Shown: piece after piece, positions 6,189 to 57,394 of the stretch | Numbering within the stretch: position 1 is the stretch's first letter | How the letters are laid out: the number at the start of each line of letters is the position of its first letter | Sequence record: PZ229304.1 | Reading direction: 5' to 3' (one strand) | DNA from: a phage | Length of the DNA stretch: 64,000 bases | Program-made: the position numbers and the translations under genes | Notes under the pieces: model-generated | What the model was told of the DNA's origin: nothing | The model's database searches: none | The model's input: the letters and a program-made list of their open reading frames with translations, nothing else

Positions 6189-6665
6189 TCAACCTCTCTT
6201 AATTTGTTTAACAAGCATAGGAACAAAGTCTCGTTTTAAAATTTGTTCAATAATATGATCAGGTAGCTGTTGGAAATTATAATTAAAAGCTACTGTCTCA
6301 CCTTTAGGTGTTTCTACCCGCACATATAACATGTTACGAAGTTTATCCACTTGTGCTGTATATTCTAAACCATGTAATTGATGCATTGCAAACATCAAAT
6401 CATCAGTTTCAGTTTGGAATCTATCCCTTCCCTGCATCAAGGACAAGGAAAAAGGTAGATTTTCCCTAAGAGCCACCTTCTTAGGCACTAGTGAAGGGAA
6501 ATACTCCCCAATAACTGCCTGTGTAAGCTGAATACACTCTTTTTCAAGCTGGTTTTGTTCCTTGAGTTCACAAACACTCTTTTGTAAAGTGTTAACCTCT
6601 TTTTGCAAAGCTGCTAGTTGAGCACTTAACTTTCTTTTTTGATTACGACCAAAACGTTTAGACAT
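6189..6665 (-). CDS. hypothetical protein
   Basis: 158-aa track ORF, ATG start. Confidence 0.45.
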   Translation of the reverse strand: MSKRFGRNQKRKLSAQLAALQKEVNTLQKSVCELKEQNQLEKECIQLTQAVIGEYFPSLVPKKVALRENLPFSLSLMQGRDRFQTETDDLMFAMHQLHGLEYTAQVDKLRNMLYVRVETPKGETVAFNYNFQQLPDHIIEQILKRDFVPMLVKQIKRG

Positions 6666-7941: not shown

Positions 7942-8292
7942 TTAACCCAAACACATCTGTGCAATCAAGCCCTGTATAAATTTATTAGCTTCTTTACTGT
8001 CGTAGTCAGTCTCTTCTGGATATCCATCTTCATCGTACACAACTGTACCTTCAATATACCCTGCCTCAATTAAGGCGCGGATCATATCAAATTGCCAGCA
8101 TGAGTTACCAAATGGACGTTTACCATTAAAACACTCTTCTTCTCTCCATAACGTAGAGAGTAGTTGTCGGAAATATTCCCGTACAGTGACAGTACCAAGA
8201 TCTGAATCCTCAAACATAACATCCAGGGCATCAGGATTGCTTTTCTCTACATAAGGAATATATTTAACACCATTAATAGTTACATCAAGCAT
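7942..8292 (-). CDS. hypothetical protein
   Basis: 116-aa track ORF, ATG start. Confidence 0.45.
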   Translation of the reverse strand: MLDVTINGVKYIPYVEKSNPDALDVMFEDSDLGTVTVREYFRQLLSTLWREEECFNGKRPFGNSCWQFDMIRALIEAGYIEGTVVYDEDGYPEETDYDSKEANKFIQGLIAQMCLG

Positions 8293-8655
8293 TTATTTCT
8301 CCTTATCATCATATTCTAGGAACATATCTGCACGATATGCTTTACGCTCTTCAAACTTAGCAGGATCTACAACAATAAGCAATACAAGGTTAACATCTAA
8401 ATACTTCTTAACAAATAGAAATAAATCTTTTCCACAGTTAAAACCTATACCAGTATAGGCATCCCCATATTGATCTACTGATTTAATCTTCTTACTAACC
8501 GTACATTCTATGCTATTCTTTTCTTCTTGGTATAAGGCTTTCCCACCCCAATATGTAAAGAATTTAGTACCGTCAGCACCAAGTTTAAAACCCTCTGTTG
8601 CATGTCCCGCAAATGAAAGTAAACATAACCAAGTGATCATCAGGTACTTTAGCAT
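8293..8655 (-). CDS. secreted protein with N-terminal signal peptide
   Basis: Trimmed to ATG at 8655; N-terminus MLKYLMITWLCLLSFAGHATEG is signal-peptide-like. Confidence 0.4.
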   Translation of the reverse strand: MLKYLMITWLCLLSFAGHATEGFKLGADGTKFFTYWGGKALYQEEKNSIECTVSKKIKSVDQYGDAYTGIGFNCGKDLFLFVKKYLDVNLVLLIVVDPAKFEERKAYRADMFLEYDDKEK

Positions 8656-28440: not shown

Positions 28441-28766
28441 AGCTAATGTTTAGAACATTGGCTATAATATAAGCTAAATCATAAGCTATGCAATAATAAA
28501 CATGGTGAATAATGACATTGATGATCATAATGCGCCACCTTCCAGGGGGCGCTATGTGAACACAAAGAAATCTTTCTTGTCAAGAAAATATTACTACTAT
28601 TGCGCAAAATTATTTATATCTGAATAGATGATTTTTTATGCTATTGCCCCCTTGATTATTACTATTTGTTGCCCTAACTATTGTCATTTGTTGAGCCTAC
28701 TTTCTTAAAAGCGCAATAAATCAGAATTATCTTGATTTTTAGTCGGTTTTATAGTACAGAAAGTAT

Positions 28767-28785
28767 GCAAATGATAATCATTATC
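28767..28785. promoter_or_regulatory. near-consensus Fur-box-like site GCAAATGATAATCATTATC
   Basis: 17/19 identity to GATAATGATAATCATTATC by hand. Confidence 0.5.
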
Positions 28786-28951
28786 AGCTATCTTCCACGG
28801 GTGGCACTATTTCACGCCAGATCATTTCATTTGGCAAGGTGTATATAGATGTTTAGAAATGCCAAGCCATTGATTTACTTAGAATTTATCTGTTTTGTTG
28901 TGAGTAGTGCCTTTCTTGCTCAGAAAATAATCAAAAGTCTTATAAGTCATT

Positions 28952-28983
28952 GAATGATAATGCAAATGATAATTATTCTCATT
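28952..28983. promoter_or_regulatory. degenerate Fur-box-like repeats
   Basis: GAATGATAATGCAAATGATAATTATTCTCATT. Confidence 0.35.
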
Positions 28984-29428
28984 GATATTTGAGGGGGACG
29001 GTCGGCAGAAATCGGGGGGCGCTGAAAATCGCGTTAAGCACCTCTCGCAAGCGAGCAGTATTTTGCGGCAAGTTATTGATATTATTGACTTTACGCTTAA
29101 GAAAAGGGGGCGTGTCGAAATAAATCGGGTATACCGGAAAATTTTTGTGGCATAGATATTTATTTGTCTATATTATGTACAAAGGGGTGTGTTAAAAATA
29201 ATAGGTATATATAGAATAATTGATAGGGAAATCCTATACTAAATCCTTCATTAATGATGTTCCTATGTTGCTGTTCTTGTAATAGATGAAAAGACGCTAT
29301 ATGATGTGTGGCATGAAACGTAAACTTATAAGATGCAAATAATGCTTGCATTGAATAGAAATGTCTATACACTGTGTTTCATAAGATATGCAATATCGCG
29401 CATAACAAACTACTAATGAGAGGTGTAA

Positions 29429-31291: not shown

Positions 31292-31642
31292 GTGTGTAAC
31301 ATGAAAAGCAGCCCTTATTTGCTACAATTTTATGAATGGTGGTTAGAACAAGAAGATACAAACTTTAGCAAAAAGCATTATGGTCTTTGCACGTGTCTTG
31401 TAGACTTCTTATACAATATTGCTTGGATAAAAGATGTTGAGAATGTAGCAAACCTCCAGTCTTCTGTACGAGAGGAAATGAAGGAACAATTTAAGAAAGC
31501 AGGTTTGAACCATTTACACCCATTTAATACAGATTTCTCGCACTACTTTACGGAAACAGAGCTAGGCATTGCACACCTTAATAAAGAACGTGTACAATGG
31601 GTGATTGATCGTATTCGTGATATGGAGGAATACAATGGTTAA
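31292..31642 (+). CDS. hypothetical protein, paralogue family A
   Basis: Shares LLQFY..W, L..LHPFN and HLNKER.QWV..R motifs with 32266-32850. Confidence 0.5.
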   Translation: MCNMKSSPYLLQFYEWWLEQEDTNFSKKHYGLCTCLVDFLYNIAWIKDVENVANLQSSVREEMKEQFKKAGLNHLHPFNTDFSHYFTETELGIAHLNKERVQWVIDRIRDMEEYNG

Positions 31643-31853
31643 GTTTAAAACTTTCTGTGCAATCACTGTTTGTCTTATTCTTGCATACGTGTTATTCTCT
31701 GGTATCGTTCGTTTAGGTGAATATATGGCAAGAGAAGCTCGTGAAAGTGAAGCTAAAAAAGAACAGTGTATTGTGTTCAAGCATCAAAGAGATGCTGAAA
31801 AGTTTCTCGCACTTGATTGCAATCGTTATGTATCTTATCAAATGTATGAGTAA
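31635..31853 (+). CDS. small membrane-anchored protein, paralogue family B
   Basis: Trimmed to ATG 31635 (GGAGG RBS); N-terminal TM helix; EQCIVFKHQRDAEKFLALDCNRYVSY resembles EKCTILKHNKQAEDFLKNKCYNYIDY in 36343-36567. Confidence 0.45.
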   Translation: MVKFKTFCAITVCLILAYVLFSGIVRLGEYMAREARESEAKKEQCIVFKHQRDAEKFLALDCNRYVSYQMYE

Positions 31854-31862
31854 GGAGGATTT

Positions 31863-32087
31863 ATGGTAAAACGTCTGGAATGGGATGCGTGTACTGCTCA
31901 CGCTTGTCACTGTGATATTGTGGAAGATCCTAATGGAGAAATGGTGTATTATGAGGATTACGAAGCATTGCATAATGCTGTGATCGCTTTACTGGATGAT
32001 ATTAGCTCACGCTATCCAGGACAACAGTTTACGTGTCCACATATCCAACTATTAGCCGAACTTACGGAGTATCCAAGTGTTCCATAA
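31863..32087 (+). CDS. hypothetical protein, paralogue family C
   Basis: CDIVEDPNGEMVYYEDYEALHNA resembles CDIVPDPEGDYVLLADYNKLEER in 37228-37491. Confidence 0.45.
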   Translation: MVKRLEWDACTAHACHCDIVEDPNGEMVYYEDYEALHNAVIALLDDISSRYPGQQFTCPHIQLLAELTEYPSVP

Positions 32088-32265
32088 TATGGGTATCCCT
32101 GAACAACTGCTCTTTATTGTAGGATTAGTAGGCTTACTGGCGGCTGGCGCTAAAGCCGCTTCTCACACGCATCACATAATGTTAAGATTTCTATTCCTAC
32201 TCCCTTCTATCCTCGTACTATTAGTCATACTGATCGATAACATTTTGCACAATTAAGGAGAGGTT

Positions 32266-32850
32266 ATGAGTAAAATTATACCAAGCAGTTATGAATTATT
32301 GCAGTTTTATGTGTATTATATAGACTGGGTTAATAGATCGAATGTTAAAGACAATGCGATGTTTAGTAAAAACATCTGTTTAACAGAAAGTATCTTCCGT
32401 TACTGGCACACAGGTAGAAAGTGTACACACAGTGAAGCTATGCGCATTGTAGGAGAATATCTGGAGCAATTGCAAAAAGCAGAGCTACCTGTCCTTCACC
32501 CATTCAATGAATCTAAAGAAGAATTAGAACAAGAGTGTAGAGAAGGTAAGTGCCATTTGAATGAAAAACGTATCGAATGGGTGAGGCAACGTTTAGCCGA
32601 TGCAGGGAATCCTCCTAGTGACTCTGACTATACGTGGTATGATGTAGAGGGTTTAGTTCAAGGTTTTGAGGCTTGTGCTATAGATAATACCAACTTTGCC
32701 AAAGTTTTATGCGAGGCTTATGACTTGGCAGATAAAATCCGAAATCATGGATGGAAACAAGAGCATAAAGAATCATATGAACGCCTTGACAAGATTTTCA
32801 AACAGATCTATTCTAACCACAAGAAGATGTTCCAAATGGAGGATGTGTAA
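32266..32850 (+). CDS. hypothetical protein, paralogue family A
   Basis: See 31292-31642. Confidence 0.5.
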   Translation: MSKIIPSSYELLQFYVYYIDWVNRSNVKDNAMFSKNICLTESIFRYWHTGRKCTHSEAMRIVGEYLEQLQKAELPVLHPFNESKEELEQECREGKCHLNEKRIEWVRQRLADAGNPPSDSDYTWYDVEGLVQGFEACAIDNTNFAKVLCEAYDLADKIRNHGWKQEHKESYERLDKIFKQIYSNHKKMFQMEDV

Positions 32851-33533
32851 TGAAAGAGATTATGTTTGAAGGGCATCGTTACGAAGTTCCAGACAATGCA
32901 AATTTCATGGCTCGTGATATCACTGGAGATGTGTTCTGGTTTGAAGATGAACCTGTGTTTTCGAACAAACACTGGTTTTCACAACAATCTTCTTCGGAAA
33001 ACATGACTTTTGGCTACGTAGAGCCTAAAGTGCGCTGCAAAGCAGCTTCTTCTTTGGTAAAAATTTCCCAAGATGATCAAGAAAATACTCCATATGTTGT
33101 TAGTGCACTACTGAAGTACATTGCAGAACTTGAGAAGAAAATTAAAGAAGCAGAAACTAAGGTGAAAGCACGATCAGCCATCATTGAAGCTATGTCTGAA
33201 CGTATCTTAGAGCTAGAAGATTTGTGTGGAGAGGCTTATCAAGTGGTCGGTGCGCTGGCTTGCGAAGCACAAATGTTTGAAACTTCAGAACAAGTTTCAC
33301 ATATGTTAGATAATTTAAGTGAATGTAAAATGATTCATGATGATGTATTGCCATTTTGTTGCAATGTTAACAAAGCAGAGCAAACAGAAGATTCAGAAAC
33401 AGTTTATGTTCCGCTGATGTGTGTTCCAGATCATCTAAAAGGTGTATTCTCTTGTAAATGGTCACTGTTGAGCGTTACTAATTGTGGCGAAAACTATTCT
33501 GCCAACATTGAATTGCTAAAACACGTTAAATAA
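32850..33533 (+). CDS. hypothetical protein
   Basis: 227-aa track ORF. Confidence 0.5.
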   Translation: MKEIMFEGHRYEVPDNANFMARDITGDVFWFEDEPVFSNKHWFSQQSSSENMTFGYVEPKVRCKAASSLVKISQDDQENTPYVVSALLKYIAELEKKIKEAETKVKARSAIIEAMSERILELEDLCGEAYQVVGALACEAQMFETSEQVSHMLDNLSECKMIHDDVLPFCCNVNKAEQTEDSETVYVPLMCVPDHLKGVFSCKWSLLSVTNCGENYSANIELLKHVK

Positions 33534-33543
33534 GGAGAGTAAT

Positions 33544-33948
33544 ATGTGGTCTGTTAAAATCAAATATAATGCGCAGTATTATGGTGGAAAGCCTTACGAA
33601 GTTGTTATTTGTGACTGTATCTCTAAAGAAGTTGCACAGCTTTGTGGCGCTGGGGTTAGTGAAGCTATGAACAAAATGCATAACTCGACTGTGCGTTACC
33701 TGGATCAAGATATTCCAGAAGATGTAAATGATTATGCTTACGAAGTTATTTTCAGTGAAGGTAAGAAGCTCTCTATTGAAGATGCACTTAAAGCACTACC
33801 TGCTATGTGCAGCCCAACACCAGAAGCAGTTAAAGAGATTTTACCAGAATCCAACCCCGATGAATATGCCTCTATGGTTGCTTCAGACATGTGGAATCTC
33901 TGTCGAGAAACTATGATTAAAAATCTTGTGGAAATGGCGCATGAGTAA
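33544..33948 (+). CDS. hypothetical protein
   Basis: 134-aa track ORF. Confidence 0.5.
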   Translation: MWSVKIKYNAQYYGGKPYEVVICDCISKEVAQLCGAGVSEAMNKMHNSTVRYLDQDIPEDVNDYAYEVIFSEGKKLSIEDALKALPAMCSPTPEAVKEILPESNPDEYASMVASDMWNLCRETMIKNLVEMAHE

Positions 33949-34159
33949 AACACACTTTATACATCCGTTTGATCCAAAGAACAAGGCGGTTATACACCGC
34001 CGTTGGACTGAAACGCGCATTACAAAATGTCCTGTGCCAGCGGCACAGGAATATAACAAAACATATAAAGCAGAATTTGTGGAGTATACCTTTGTAAATA
34101 ACAAAGGGAAGGAGGTTTATGTTCCAGAATACTGCCTTTGGATAAAATGGGAGGAATAA
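33941..34159 (+). CDS. hypothetical protein
   Basis: Trimmed to ATG 33941, overlapping the upstream stop. Confidence 0.4.
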   Translation: MSKTHFIHPFDPKNKAVIHRRWTETRITKCPVPAAQEYNKTYKAEFVEYTFVNNKGKEVYVPEYCLWIKWEE

Positions 34160-34326
34160 TGCAAACATTTTTTATCGACAAATTCAATAAAAGTATGAAC
34201 ACGTGGATGGCAACATTCACTATGCAATTTGCGTCATTTAAAGAAGCTCAAGAATGGTGCGATCAACACAAGGATTTTGATTTTTACTATCAAATTAATG
34301 CAAACCTTTCTCCAGAGGAGAAATAA
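34159..34326 (+). CDS. small hypothetical protein
   Basis: Trimmed to ATG 34159 (GGGAGGA RBS). Confidence 0.35.
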   Translation: MQTFFIDKFNKSMNTWMATFTMQFASFKEAQEWCDQHKDFDFYYQINANLSPEEK

Positions 34327-34327
34327 T

Positions 34328-34672
34328 ATGTTAGCTGATATTGAAATCCTTATGTACCGACAAGGTATGATCAAAATGTGGCTAGATTCTTTTAGCAATA
34401 TATACTGTACAGTACGATCAGCAGACGAGCGTAAAACGCTTATCTTATCTGCTATTGTTGATAAACAACGTTTCTTCAAAGAAGTTTTGCAAACAGGTTT
34501 CTCCGATGCAGGAGTAGAAATTGCAACTCTTAGTCTTGGGGTGCTGTCTTACTTGGAATCCGTTGTTTTATATGTCTTCTCTTTAGAAGAACACTTGCAA
34601 TTTGAAGCATTAAAACTTATCTTAGATGCTGCAATTGACATAGAACAAAATCGAATTGACTCTTTTGAATAA
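34328..34672 (+). CDS. hypothetical protein
   Basis: Trimmed to ATG 34328 (GGAG RBS). Confidence 0.45.
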   Translation: MLADIEILMYRQGMIKMWLDSFSNIYCTVRSADERKTLILSAIVDKQRFFKEVLQTGFSDAGVEIATLSLGVLSYLESVVLYVFSLEEHLQFEALKLILDAAIDIEQNRIDSFE

Positions 34673-34688
34673 AAATAAGGAGAAAACT

Positions 34689-35147
34689 ATGCAAGAGGTT
34701 AAACATCATCCACATGGTCGTAGTTTTGTAGCTGTATGGCATGTTCCTGCTCGTAATGAACTGTTTTGTGCATCTTTTCATTACAAAGATGGACAATATT
34801 TCACCTATGACGAGACGATGGATGATTTTATCCCAGAGTGCGATCATGGGTATACACCAATGTTCTTTAAACGTATGAAAGCTCGTTTCTTCGTTACAGA
34901 TGTTGATGGTGAACCTACTTGGCACATCGAAGAAGATTGGCAAGATTCTGTGGATATTAAAGAAGCCCCAGAATGGGCTACATTACTGGTACACGTCAAA
35001 ACCCCTACCCTTGACGTTATGGCGTGGGTTAATCATGATGATACCCATTACCAATACATAAATGGTAGCACAGAGATTTCTGGTGAGATTATTGGTCGTT
35101 GGAAGCCTACGAATCAGGTTGCCATTGTCGGGTATAAGGCAGTATAA
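34689..35147 (+). CDS. hypothetical protein
   Basis: Trimmed to ATG 34689 (AAGGAGAAA RBS). Confidence 0.45.
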   Translation: MQEVKHHPHGRSFVAVWHVPARNELFCASFHYKDGQYFTYDETMDDFIPECDHGYTPMFFKRMKARFFVTDVDGEPTWHIEEDWQDSVDIKEAPEWATLLVHVKTPTLDVMAWVNHDDTHYQYINGSTEISGEIIGRWKPTNQVAIVGYKAV

Positions 35148-35148
35148 T

Positions 35149-35343
35149 ATGAAAAATAGTGTAGATTGGGATGATTTATCCGATTTTGAAAAATGGTTCT
35201 TAGTTAGTGGTTGTTATGCAGATGGGGATCTCGAAAGAGATCCTTCTGGAAACTACACTATGCCACTAACTCAAGGTTTTTATGAGTGCTGGTGCGCAGC
35301 ACAAAACAACGTACTAAATAAGGAGACAACACAATGCAATTAA
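35149..35343 (+). CDS. small hypothetical protein
   Basis: Trimmed to ATG 35149. Confidence 0.35.
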   Translation: MKNSVDWDDLSDFEKWFLVSGCYADGDLERDPSGNYTMPLTQGFYECWCAAQNNVLNKETTQCN

Positions 35344-35573
35344 ACATCGGACAACCAATTTTTGATGCAGATACTGGTCAATATGCAGTGATTGTTGCTC
35401 GTATGAGCGGTGATGACCTTATTGTTTCAGAACTACTCGGATCAGATCCGCAACTCCGCGTAGTATGTGACCTATATCTTCGAGACGAAAGTGATCGCAT
35501 TGCACTGAAAGAAGATGGTATGCTCTACTACACCTGGACTAGAGATCCTGGGGTAACGGAGGTAGAGGTCTAA
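35334..35573 (+). CDS. hypothetical protein
   Basis: 79-aa track ORF, GGAGAC RBS. Confidence 0.45.
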   Translation: MQLNIGQPIFDADTGQYAVIVARMSGDDLIVSELLGSDPQLRVVCDLYLRDESDRIALKEDGMLYYTWTRDPGVTEVEV

Positions 35574-35867
35574 TGGTAAGGAATAGGGTTTACATAAAAG
35601 AAGACACCTTACTTACTGGCATCGTAAAGTACATGAACCTGTATCAAAGAAAGAATGGCAATATCTGCCTTATGGGAAGGAGCGAAGAAAGTATCTGTTA
35701 GCTCACTTAAGGGTACATGGTTCTCTTCCTGTTAACAGTAAGTGGCAATTGCAAACAGCTTATGACGAAGATATGAAATATTTGTTAAAGAGAGGCATTA
35801 TTTGCCTTGTTAAGATAGGGCGATGGAAATCTCGTCAATCCTATATCGTACTTAAACAGGAGAAACC

Positions 35868-36119
35868 ATGAATATCAAAGATGTTGTAGCATACGTAGCA
35901 GATGAAGTTAAAAACCATACAAGTTTACTGAAAGTAATGGTTGTGGTTAAAAATGGCATTGGACAAGTAAACGTACAACATGTCTTATCTGATACTGTAT
36001 ATAATGTGTTTGAATGTAAAGACACACCTCATGGAGTACGTGTGGTGTATATTGATAACAATTTCAAAGAGTGTGTGAGACATACCTTAAAAAATGAGCT
36101 AAGGATCACAACCTTATGA
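35868..36119 (+). CDS. hypothetical protein
   Basis: 83-aa track ORF, AGGAGAAA RBS. Confidence 0.45.
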   Translation: MNIKDVVAYVADEVKNHTSLLKVMVVVKNGIGQVNVQHVLSDTVYNVFECKDTPHGVRVVYIDNNFKECVRHTLKNELRITTL

Positions 36120-36289
36120 GTTATTATGTTGTACCCTATGCTAATAAGTGGAGAGTAAGAGAAACTTGTTTTCTATTCTCCTGGTGGGCTACGTTCGGAG
36201 ATGGTTGTGGAAATGATACAGGGAAGCCTGTAGAGTATGACACAAAAGAAGAATGTGAACAGTGGATAAAATTAACACAAAGATGTTGA
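36116..36289 (+). CDS. small hypothetical protein (57 aa)
   Basis: Own translation MSYYVVPYANKWRVRETCFLFSWW..; ATGA overlap with upstream stop. Confidence 0.3.
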   Translation: MSYYVVPYANKWRVRETCFLFSWWATFGDGCGNDTGKPVEYDTKEECEQWIKLTQRC

Positions 36290-36342
36290 CACGATCTTAA
36301 CTTCTTGTTAGTATCAATGTGTACTAACGATAAGGAGGGTTT

Positions 36343-36567
36343 ATGAAGTCTGTAAACAAGTTGCAACAATTTTTGTTATCAACAGCAATCTTTTTGCTTT
36401 TGTTAATTGGTATTCTGTATGGTGCATCTAACTTATACAATCTACACAACAATGTAGAACATAATATAGAGAAGTGCACCATTCTAAAACACAATAAACA
36501 AGCAGAAGATTTCTTAAAGAATAAGTGTTACAATTACATTGATTATGAGGAGACAAACAATGATTAA
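36343..36567 (+). CDS. small membrane-anchored protein, paralogue family B
   Basis: AAGGAGGG RBS; TM helix; see 31635-31853. Confidence 0.45.
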   Translation: MKSVNKLQQFLLSTAIFLLLLIGILYGASNLYNLHNNVEHNIEKCTILKHNKQAEDFLKNKCYNYIDYEETNND

Positions 36568-36802
36568 AGAATTAGGGATGCGAGTATACAGTGAGTGGAC
36601 TCCAAGCAATGGCCCAGGAGTTGTTGCAGCTAAGTGTATCAATGGTCGTATTGAGTACCTGGAAGGTTATGAAGATAATGAAGAGTTAGTAGATTATGCT
36701 AAATCTTTTATTGAAGATGATACAGACTTTATTGTATTATATGATACAGGAGAGTTAGAGTATGGATATGATGGAGATGGGGATATCTTTGAACTTCAAT
36801 AA
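36560..36802 (+). CDS. hypothetical acidic protein
   Basis: Trimmed to ATG 36560 (GAGGAG RBS). Confidence 0.4.
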   Translation: MIKELGMRVYSEWTPSNGPGVVAAKCINGRIEYLEGYEDNEELVDYAKSFIEDDTDFIVLYDTGELEYGYDGDGDIFELQ

Positions 36803-36896
36803 GAGTAGTAAGTAAGATATAAAGAGTATATAGTTAGTTATAGAGTTAGTAACATTACATATACTCTTTCCATGTATAACATGGAATATTCTCTAC

Positions 36897-36950
36897 CTCG
36901 CTATCGCTCGGTATATAAGATTAGGGTAGCATGTTTTTTACGAAAAGTAA
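36897..36950. repeat. intergenic repeat element, copy 2
   Basis: CCTCGCTATCGCTCGG ... TTAGGGTAGCATGTTTTTTACGAAAAGTAAAA, matching 9988-10040. Confidence 0.5.
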
Positions 36951-37009
36951 AACTGTTTGTACCGATTGATAGCAGGTTTTTAATAGATTTTATCTATGAG
37001 GAGTAGAAA

Positions 37010-37228
37010 GTGTACAAATTATATAAAGCAAAAGATAAGTTTACGGGTAATACATCTGGTTTCTATGTAACACCTCGTGGTGTTGCTGTGTTCGATTGGA
37101 TCTCTGGTACTCCAGATCGTGAAATGATCTCTCTTGTAAAACTGTCGGAACAAGAGTACACTTACGGTGACATTACAACATTCTATTCTCGTGCAGAAAA
37201 TCCAAAACTGATTGCGGAGTGGGAATAA
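37010..37228 (+). CDS. hypothetical protein
   Basis: 72-aa track ORF, GTG start 6 nt after GAGGAG. Confidence 0.4.
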   Translation: MYKLYKAKDKFTGNTSGFYVTPRGVAVFDWISGTPDREMISLVKLSEQEYTYGDITTFYSRAENPKLIAEWE

Positions 37229-37491
37229 TGGTTACACGATATGGCTTAGAGGTGTACAGCCAAGGTGCTGCTGGTCAATGTGATATTGTACCAGATCCAG
37301 AAGGGGATTATGTTCTTCTTGCTGATTACAATAAGCTAGAAGAAAGACTTCTGGCTGTGTATGCTAAAGAGAACAAAACAATCTGCCCTTATTGCAGTGG
37401 AATGGGTTGGGTAGTTGCAGATGTTGGACAAATGTATGAATGTGTGCCTTGTAAAACCACAGGATTTATTGAAAAGGATACTAACAAATGA
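37228..37491 (+). CDS. hypothetical Cys-containing protein, paralogue family C
   Basis: Trimmed to ATG 37228; CPYCSG..CVPCKTTG suggests a zinc ribbon. Confidence 0.4.
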   Translation: MVTRYGLEVYSQGAAGQCDIVPDPEGDYVLLADYNKLEERLLAVYAKENKTICPYCSGMGWVVADVGQMYECVPCKTTGFIEKDTNK

Positions 37492-56935: not shown

Positions 56936-57262
56936 TTACCAAACGTGTTGAGAAATAATAGTTTCCGTTTCAATGTTATATTTTTCAAGAAGTTGTGCAT
57001 AGGCTTCTTTTGCATTTTTATTTAGTTGCTCAAGATCTACAGCTACACTTCCTTCGCCACCTTCTAAATAAATGCCATATATGCAATAAGATTCATCAGC
57101 GTCATAGAAAGGAGAGATACGACTTAAATCAAGACCTTCTTGTAAGAACCAGTTAAAGTCTCCATCAAATTCTTCTTCAACTCTAGGATCTTCTCCTACA
57201 GCTTCTTCCCATTTATTAAAAGGTGCGCCCTGTAACATACGCCATTCAATATTAGTCCCCAT
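56936..57262 (-). CDS. hypothetical protein
   Basis: 108-aa track ORF. Confidence 0.45.
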   Translation of the reverse strand: MGTNIEWRMLQGAPFNKWEEAVGEDPRVEEEFDGDFNWFLQEGLDLSRISPFYDADESYCIYGIYLEGGEGSVAVDLEQLNKNAKEAYAQLLEKYNIETETIISQHVW

Positions 57263-57394
57263 TATCTTCCTCTTCTTCTTCAGTATGAACGAAACCTAAA
57301 CCGTTACAATTCCAACAAGGAATAAATTGTTCCATACTAACAATAAAATTCCCAGTACCACCGCAGATAGGACAAATACTTACATCATCCATTA

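Follow-up and report, generated by a model that had tools for sequence, protein, structure and literature searches.

How did the short genes packed beside the genome end of a phi92-like phage come to include three pairs of diverged copies? The question is raised by positions 31292-37491 of sequence record PZ229304.1, a stretch of 64,000 nucleotides of phage DNA (hereafter the window), in which three adjacent genes, A1, B1 and C1, each have a more distant partner further downstream, A2, B2 and C2. A sequence-only reading of this arrangement had proposed segmental duplication followed by diversification, as expected under arms-race selection. In our analysis, the explanation that fits best, and that we consider fairly probable, is that three unrelated small-protein families lie in a plastic early-gene block that has grown and been reshuffled piecemeal, and that they encode non-essential early accessory proteins.

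Over its full length the region shares 97.7% identity with Escherichia phage phi92, and 56 records match it at 95-99% identity, nearly all of them Justusliebigvirus (Stephanstirmvirinae) coliphages; judged by its sequence, the source is a phi92-like myophage of the genus Justusliebigvirus. The phi92 equivalent of the region begins ∼2.3 kb from the left genome end, directly after the left terminal repeat, where the phi92 record shows a series of short genes on one strand, nearly all labelled hypothetical and every one annotated with a ribosome-binding site. All six open reading frames (ORFs) of interest are present on the + strand: A1 (31292..31642, gp006 in phi92), which starts at GTG 31292 or ATG 31301; B1 (31635..31853, gp007), of 72 amino acids (aa); C1 (31863..32087, gp008, 74 aa); A2 (32266..32850, gp010, 194 aa); B2 (36343..36567, gp022, 74 aa); and C2 (37228..37491, gp025, 87 aa).

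Direct BLASTP comparison of the partners gave 30% identity over 114 aa for A1/A2 (E=2e-11), 39% over 31 aa for B1/B2 (E=1e-7) and 41% over 32 aa for C1/C2 (E=8e-7). When all 381 window ORFs of at least 40 aa were compared with each other, the A pair ranked first (E=3.6e-9), the B pair third (E=6.4e-5) and the C pair fourth (E=2.8e-4). Pairs of wrong-strand ORFs reach E∼5e-4 in this comparison, which gives the noise floor, and since the B and C values lie near it, these two pairs needed independent support. PHROGs splits each pair between two families (phrog_2510 and phrog_27059 for A, phrog_15662 and phrog_23204 for B, phrog_23083 and phrog_22955 for C), all six of them without known function, and each gene belongs over its full length to its own PHROG (E=3e-25 for A1, E=4.5e-38 for B1). 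In a library of 38,880 PHROG profiles, the partners nevertheless matched each other's families reciprocally, with E-values of 2.8e-8 and 4.5e-17 for A, 2.1e-6 and 3.6e-6 for B, and 4.2e-4 and 4.7e-4 for C. Moreover, in hhalign a B1-type profile made without B2 matched B2 over 55 columns (E=1.7e-10), and a C1-type profile made without C2 matched C2 with E=3.2e-7 (residues 1-43 against 1-44). Pairwise and profile alignments were thus significant for all three pairs, and the proposal that each of A1, B1 and C1 has a diverged downstream paralogue is confirmed; on these alignments the three pairs are true homologies. The pairings are absent from PHROGs and from annotations; paralogous families of small early phage genes as such are already familiar. 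With a hidden Markov model (HMM) of family A, made from 127 representatives, the window yields two members and no more, and HMMs of B and C likewise yield two each, together with a stand-alone 46-aa zinc-finger mini-protein (57252..57392, - strand).

What the partners share differs from pair to pair. Homology spans the full length of B1/B2, is limited to the first ∼117 of the 194 residues of A2, and is confined to the N-terminal ∼44 residues in C1/C2. The second copies span 5.2 kb (32266-37491) with at least 15 unrelated genes interspersed, and no contiguous A2-B2-C2 was found among the relatives examined. No repeated DNA cassettes flank the copies, and the sole trace of nucleotide similarity is a run of 38 nt at 76% identity that remains within the C1/C2 module. 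In each pair, the second copy stands further from the first than do homologues in other genera or even in other phage families. A counterpart of the A2 lineage, in split form, occurs in Phapecoctavirus, and none was found outside Justusliebigvirus for B2 or full-length C2, so that the three pairs appear to differ in age, with the limits that fast divergence could mask counterparts and that identity matrices leave the order of the splits undecided. B1 and C1 are not always neighbours either: an 82-aa gene (phrog_17168) intervenes in one Justusliebigvirus lineage (muut, Eryne, VEcB, L011 and L012), and four genes intervene in ESCO13, a Phapecoctavirus. The 82-aa gene lies between the equivalents of window positions 31853 and 31863 (2902-3150 in L011), and the B1 of this lineage is only 85-88% identical. 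The families would therefore have grown by repeated duplications of one or two genes, by gain and loss, by fusion in the case of A2 and by a domain graft in the case of C2.

The extent of family A was assessed with a profile built from A1, A2 and a few homologues, which was scored against 1.84 billion representative proteins. It returned 1,576 clusters (at 50% identity) with E<=1e-3, and 758 with E<=1e-10. Stand-alone proteins of 97-145 aa make up the majority, many other members have two domains in ∼200-230 aa, and a single member has three. The named members, all phage proteins annotated as hypothetical, come from Xanthomonas phage XbC2, Citrobacter phage Tr1, Rhizobium phage Palo, Erwinia phage Ea9-2, Klebsiella phage Opt-79 and a Seunavirus, and the family occurs in Schitoviridae, Autographiviridae, Drexlerviridae, Vequintavirinae and jumbo phages; as far as seen, it is restricted to phages. 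Searches of Pfam, NCBIfam and PDB sequences gave no match to it. The domain (∼113 aa in A1) is modelled by AF2/AlphaFold as all-alpha with six helices, with a predicted local distance difference test score (pLDDT) of 83 and a predicted template modelling score of 0.77 for A1. In an alignment of 129 sequences the signature comprises F10, Y11, W14, G28-L29-C30 (98-100%), E59, Q63, P74-F75 (100%), H92 (78%), N94 (98%), R97 (100%) and W100 (99%), a sharpness that points to a specific functional site. A1 carries G28-L29-C30, P74-F75, N94, R97 and W100. A2 lacks G28 and C30, the sole such case among the 129 sequences, and retains the P-F, H, N, R and W positions. Its divergent family A domain (32266-32616) is followed by a 77-residue C-terminal extension that is a separate ORF directly after an A gene in Phapecoctavirus; by this comparison A2 would be the product of a gene fusion.

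Copy number in family A varies among relatives. Stephanstirmvirinae genomes hold from 2 to 5 or more copies, often in tandem or as head-to-tail fusions, with five A genes within 13 kb in ESCO13 and five within 8 kb in L014, a relative from IMG/VR. Within one genome, paralogues share 19-47% identity and stand no nearer to each other than to homologues from unrelated phage families. A1 shares 28-30% identity with A2 as against 33-39% with several members from Phapecoctavirus, Klebsiella phages and Drexlerviridae, and the ESCO13 gene at 6338 is 46% identical to its homologue in the Drexlerviridae phage Opt-79 and at most 39% identical to its own paralogues. Comparison of close relatives indicates that A copies are gained and lost between them. 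In VivaForever, of the same genus, an insertion of ∼860 bp at the equivalent of window ∼29330, just right of the position of the phi92 left terminal repeat, carries two extra tandem A genes in an ESCO13-like arrangement, so that copy number within the genus is 2 or 4. Other records with four tblastn places instead of two may share this insertion.

Homology between C1 and C2 is of another kind. C1 consists of an N-terminal module (residues 1-44) and a C-terminal tail, and all of its 74 residues find homology both in a Kagunavirus protein and in the N-terminal half of an ESCO13 protein of 148 aa. A weak model (pLDDT 67) predicts a beta-hairpin and then a helix for the module. In C2 the C-type module (37228-37359) is followed by a DnaJ-like CxxCxGxG zinc finger (∼37366-37470), and the phi92 record labels gp025 'DnaJ-like zinc finger'. 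This half contains CPYCSGMG and then CVPCKTTG, the first of which, read from the C2 sequence, fits the CxxCxGxG motif and the second in part. The likeness to the DnaJ central cysteine-rich domain (PF00684) and the anti-TRAP zinc-binding motif lies in the two CxxC pairs ∼16 residues apart. Matches to PF00684 and Anti-TRAP are weak (E=0.014-0.028), and C2 stays below the Pfam gathering score for PF00684 (15.1 vs 32.7 bits); unlike that domain, it scores far under the curated cut-offs (15 vs 32 bits) and has one zinc centre only. Since C1 has no such finger, the DnaJ-like motif is not what the two proteins share. The statement that family C members carry Cys pairs is accordingly true as a description, but the cysteines are not homologous as pairs: C10, C15, C17 and C58 of C1 are not conserved among its own homologues, C17 of C1 with C18 of C2 is the sole aligned Cys, and the CxxC pairs of C2 belong to the finger that C1 lacks.

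Both parts of C2 occur in other company. Klebsiella-type Stephanstirmvirinae encode a protein of 74-77 aa with a zinc finger that matches that of C2 at 63% identity and with 36 N-terminal residues that bear no relation to the C module; its gene adjoins a homologue of the small ORF at window 36872-37006. Full-length C2 was found only in Justusliebigvirus. The C module, or all 74 residues of C1, precedes a gp011-like domain (phrog_1972) in ESCO13 and other PHROG families in Bas101. Because homology stops at about residue 44 and the module precedes varied C-terminal parts, C1 and C2 represent a shuffled module rather than a duplicated gene, and C2 probably formed by the joining of a C module to a pre-existing zinc-finger gene. 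The C1-like protein of ESCO13 (7982-8428) continues into a domain (phrog_1972, phrog_11307) that is also N-terminal in gp011 (window 32850-33533), another case of domain shuffling in the block.

Some observations on other C-like sequences may be added. Residues 2-48 of C1 match the Lar-like restriction alleviation family phrog_3592 with E=7.7e-4, over the first 50 of 182 profile positions only, and P0004 matches it with E=9.7e-4; Pfam and NCBIfam gave no match. The mini-protein at 57252-57392 has the type of finger found at the C-terminus of C2, and its homologues are auto-annotated 'DNA ligase' or 'restriction alleviation protein', labels that look like carry-over from PHROG. The gene gp023 was suspected of being a hidden member of family C, as it directly follows B2, carries a YEDNEEL motif and is joined to C1 in P0003, and was rejected (BLASTP E=0.07-0.12, hhalign E=0.42). 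P0003 is a 73-aa protein encoded on a 1,550-bp Logan contig, in which residues 1-32 of C1 are followed by the last 41 residues of gp023 with the junction at YED(Y/N)E; in window terms, 31863-31958 is joined to ∼36680-36802. It is either a natural deletion variant that has lost ∼4.7 kb (A2 through B2) or an assembly chimera.

In family B, both B1 and B2 have a single N-terminal hydrophobic helix (19-residue Kyte-Doolittle mean 2.4-2.55) preceded by a K-rich basic N-terminus (MVKFK and MKSVNK), in agreement with the proposal that this family is membrane-anchored. They share a signature of the membrane helix, E-x-C, K, A-x-x-F-L and C, and B2, the divergent member, keeps the two Cys of B1. The helix of B2 may be a signal-anchor or a cleavable signal, and the phi92 record carries a SignalP note of a predicted signal peptide on gp022. 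By the positive-inside rule, the C-terminal domain of ∼30 residues would face the periplasm and the basic N-terminus the cytoplasm, which would make family B a bitopic inner-membrane mini-protein, and its two invariant Cys probably form a disulfide. Searches located the family in no phages other than Stephanstirmvirinae-like ones (120 tblastn records and 5 IMG/VR loci) and B2 only in the 56 Justusliebigvirus records, and Pfam, NCBIfam, PHROG and PDB-sequence searches gave no sequence tie to any annotated family.

A and B genes tend to stand together. The start of B1 overlaps the stop of A1 by 8 nt (ATGGTTAA), and adjacency is seen again at ESCO13 6338/6643 and 11994/12317 and, in B-A order, in L013, while in L014 the two are one gene apart. 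Of the seven B genes examined, four thus adjoin an A gene and a fifth is separated from one by a single gene, and stop and start codons overlap at three A-B junctions, which suggests translational coupling. The linkage is probably non-random and may be functional. These counts, and the two separate A-B pairs of ESCO13, favour an explanation in which the copied unit was a functional A-B cassette, made of a cytoplasmic helical protein and a periplasm-facing disulfide protein, with B2 having lost its A partner and C being unrelated. We nevertheless hold this to be unlikely. Some adjacency is expected where A genes are so dense, and outside Stephanstirmvirinae the gene after A encodes a membrane protein in none of four cases. 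Moreover, the A and B identity matrices are incongruent, A1 being nearest to ESCO13 11994 and B1 to L013 and ESCO13 6643, and no A remnant was found upstream of B2 among the ORFs of the window or with the family A HMM. Finally, only ∼5 residues of B would lie in the cytoplasm, so that a direct A-B complex is unlikely. A broader form of the idea, that A and B constitute an unrecognised two-part accessory system diversified to variable host targets (for example, for defence evasion or superinfection exclusion) with A as its widespread core, is a speculation to which we give little credence; if true, the core of such a system would be a family of >1,500 clusters with no Pfam entry.

The reading first given to this locus goes further, and supposes that an ancestral A-B-C block was tandemly duplicated, its second copy being split by insertions and the copies then diverging. 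That each family has exactly two members in the window, in matching order and orientation, is what it would predict; the recurrent A-B linkage in relatives makes multi-gene copying plausible, and all three pairs are deeply diverged. However, a matching A<B<C order has a 1-in-6 chance of arising anyway, and the evidence given above stands against a common event: the unrelated genes inside the second set, a C1/C2 homology that ends at residue 44 while the finger half of C2 has counterparts with another N-terminus, a Phapecoctavirus counterpart for A2 and not for B2 or C2, a B1-C1 adjacency that is not fixed even within the genus, and an A1 whose homologues in other phage families are nearer to it than A2 is. 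We therefore regard a single block duplication as quite improbable. Duplication and divergence of paralogous families in the early region is the part of the earlier proposal that stands, and a single A-B-C segmental duplication is the part that fails, the copies being dispersed and partly homologous. As for the possibility that only the A pair is real and that the B and C likenesses arose by chance among short, compositionally biased ORFs, it draws on the closeness of their window E-values to the wrong-strand floor and is refuted by the profile tests, that is, by the reciprocal cross-matches, by the leave-one-out hhalign results and by a five-member B alignment from three phages with invariant E43, C45, K49, A54, F57, L58 and C62 in the C-terminal domain, which leaves it with almost no probability.

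Some points weigh against piecemeal growth of the three families, or against the accessory role that goes with it. The collinear order A, B, C, A2 is kept between Justusliebigvirus and Phapecoctavirus, and this collinearity, together with the A-B linkage, would fit a measure of ancient block-wise copying. With 70-110 residues at 25-40% identity, identity matrices cannot order the duplications. The small cytoplasmic part of B weakens the functional sense of the linkage, and an early or accessory role is read from position and gene style.

To see how these genes evolve at present, the ratio of non-synonymous to synonymous polymorphism (pN/pS) was computed against three to five close relatives. 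Values were 0.05 for A1, 0.25 for B1, 0.02 for C1, 0.11 for A2, 0.24 for B2 and 0.09 for C2, and are similar to those of neighbouring genes. This purifying selection indicates that the six are real coding genes. The two B genes are among the faster evolvers of the block, though from small counts. None of the six shows a sign of positive selection among close relatives, and the arms-race selection that had been proposed finds no support there; family A does vary in presence and copy number between relatives. As a low-confidence guess, the six proteins would be non-essential early accessory products that affect the physiology of the host, its defences or superinfection. The conserved Cys/His/Asn/Arg site would be the means by which A works in the cytoplasm; A2, a copy without this Cys, would have diverged in function, and B would work on the periplasmic side of the inner membrane.

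Large virulent phages of the T4 type have hyperplastic regions, in which small early or accessory genes form multi-copy families in variable parts of the genome. The phi92-like block resembles them in its short same-strand genes with overlapping stops and starts, its position beside the genome end and its paralogous ORFan families, and also in a content that differs between close relatives by insertion and deletion and in the shuffling of domains. Unlike in those regions, the copies have no repeated promoter or stem-loop cassettes beside them, and A, B and C have no described function. T4 also makes early the small periplasm-facing membrane proteins Imm, Sp and RI, which B resembles in form only (∼70 aa, one N-terminal membrane helix and a small outer-side domain). 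Searches of Pfam, NCBIfam and PDB sequences gave nothing usable for A, B and C, and a word-indexed protein search yielded little (4, 1 and 8 matches). The rV5 paper and a 2025 paper on Stephanstirmvirinae are silent on the three families, and no other paper on them was found among the searchable literature.

Further features of the block and its surroundings were noted. A fourth paralogue pair, missed in the first reading, is formed by gp018 (window 35334-35573) and gp023 (36560-36802), whose start overlaps the stop of B2 by 8 nt. Compared directly the two give E=28, and both match, over their full length, a tandem pair in Klebsiella phage phi1_175008 with E-values from 5e-9 to 1e-13; this pair fits the piecemeal picture. 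Directly upstream of B2, in a 53-bp gap, lies a candidate sigma-70-like promoter (36286..36314, + strand: TTGACA, a 17-nt spacer, TG and TAGTAT), proposed from its match to the consensus, the number of such matches in the region being equal to shuffle expectation. The gap between gp023 and gp024 contains a non-coding element (36890-36965) that is nearly invariant across three genera with proteins only 35-57% identical. Its core, present once per genome, is TCGCTATCGCTCG, ∼10 variable nt, TAGGGTAGCATGTTTTTT, 3 nt and AAAAGT. It has no Rfam match, and in Phapecoctavirus a stop codon breaks the 44-aa ORF that overlaps it. Folding of the region is good (z=-4.1), with long-range pairs that are not retained in relatives, and candidate roles for the element are those of promoter, terminator and small RNA. 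Further to the left, a 37-nt direct repeat occurs three times at 28512-28996, spaced 195-253 bp apart, beside the equivalent of the phi92 left end; as this end corresponds to window ∼28960, the source record is permuted relative to phi92. Finally, MG065639, MG065645, MG065656, MG065689 and other records are named 'Campylobacter phage' with C. jejuni as host, and in the genes treated here they are 98-100% identical to Escherichia coli Justusliebigvirus phages; the host label of these GenBank records looks doubtful.

The value of these results is mostly one of tidying, in that six 'hypothetical' genes of phi92 are assigned to three families and their origins traced, and no long-standing question is opened by them. 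Family A deserves to be flagged, being a very large family of a phage-only domain whose site is sharply conserved and which is absent from Pfam and from solved structures, and the relatives that naturally carry two or four copies of it offer a ready comparison for screening early genes for host takeover or anti-defence functions.

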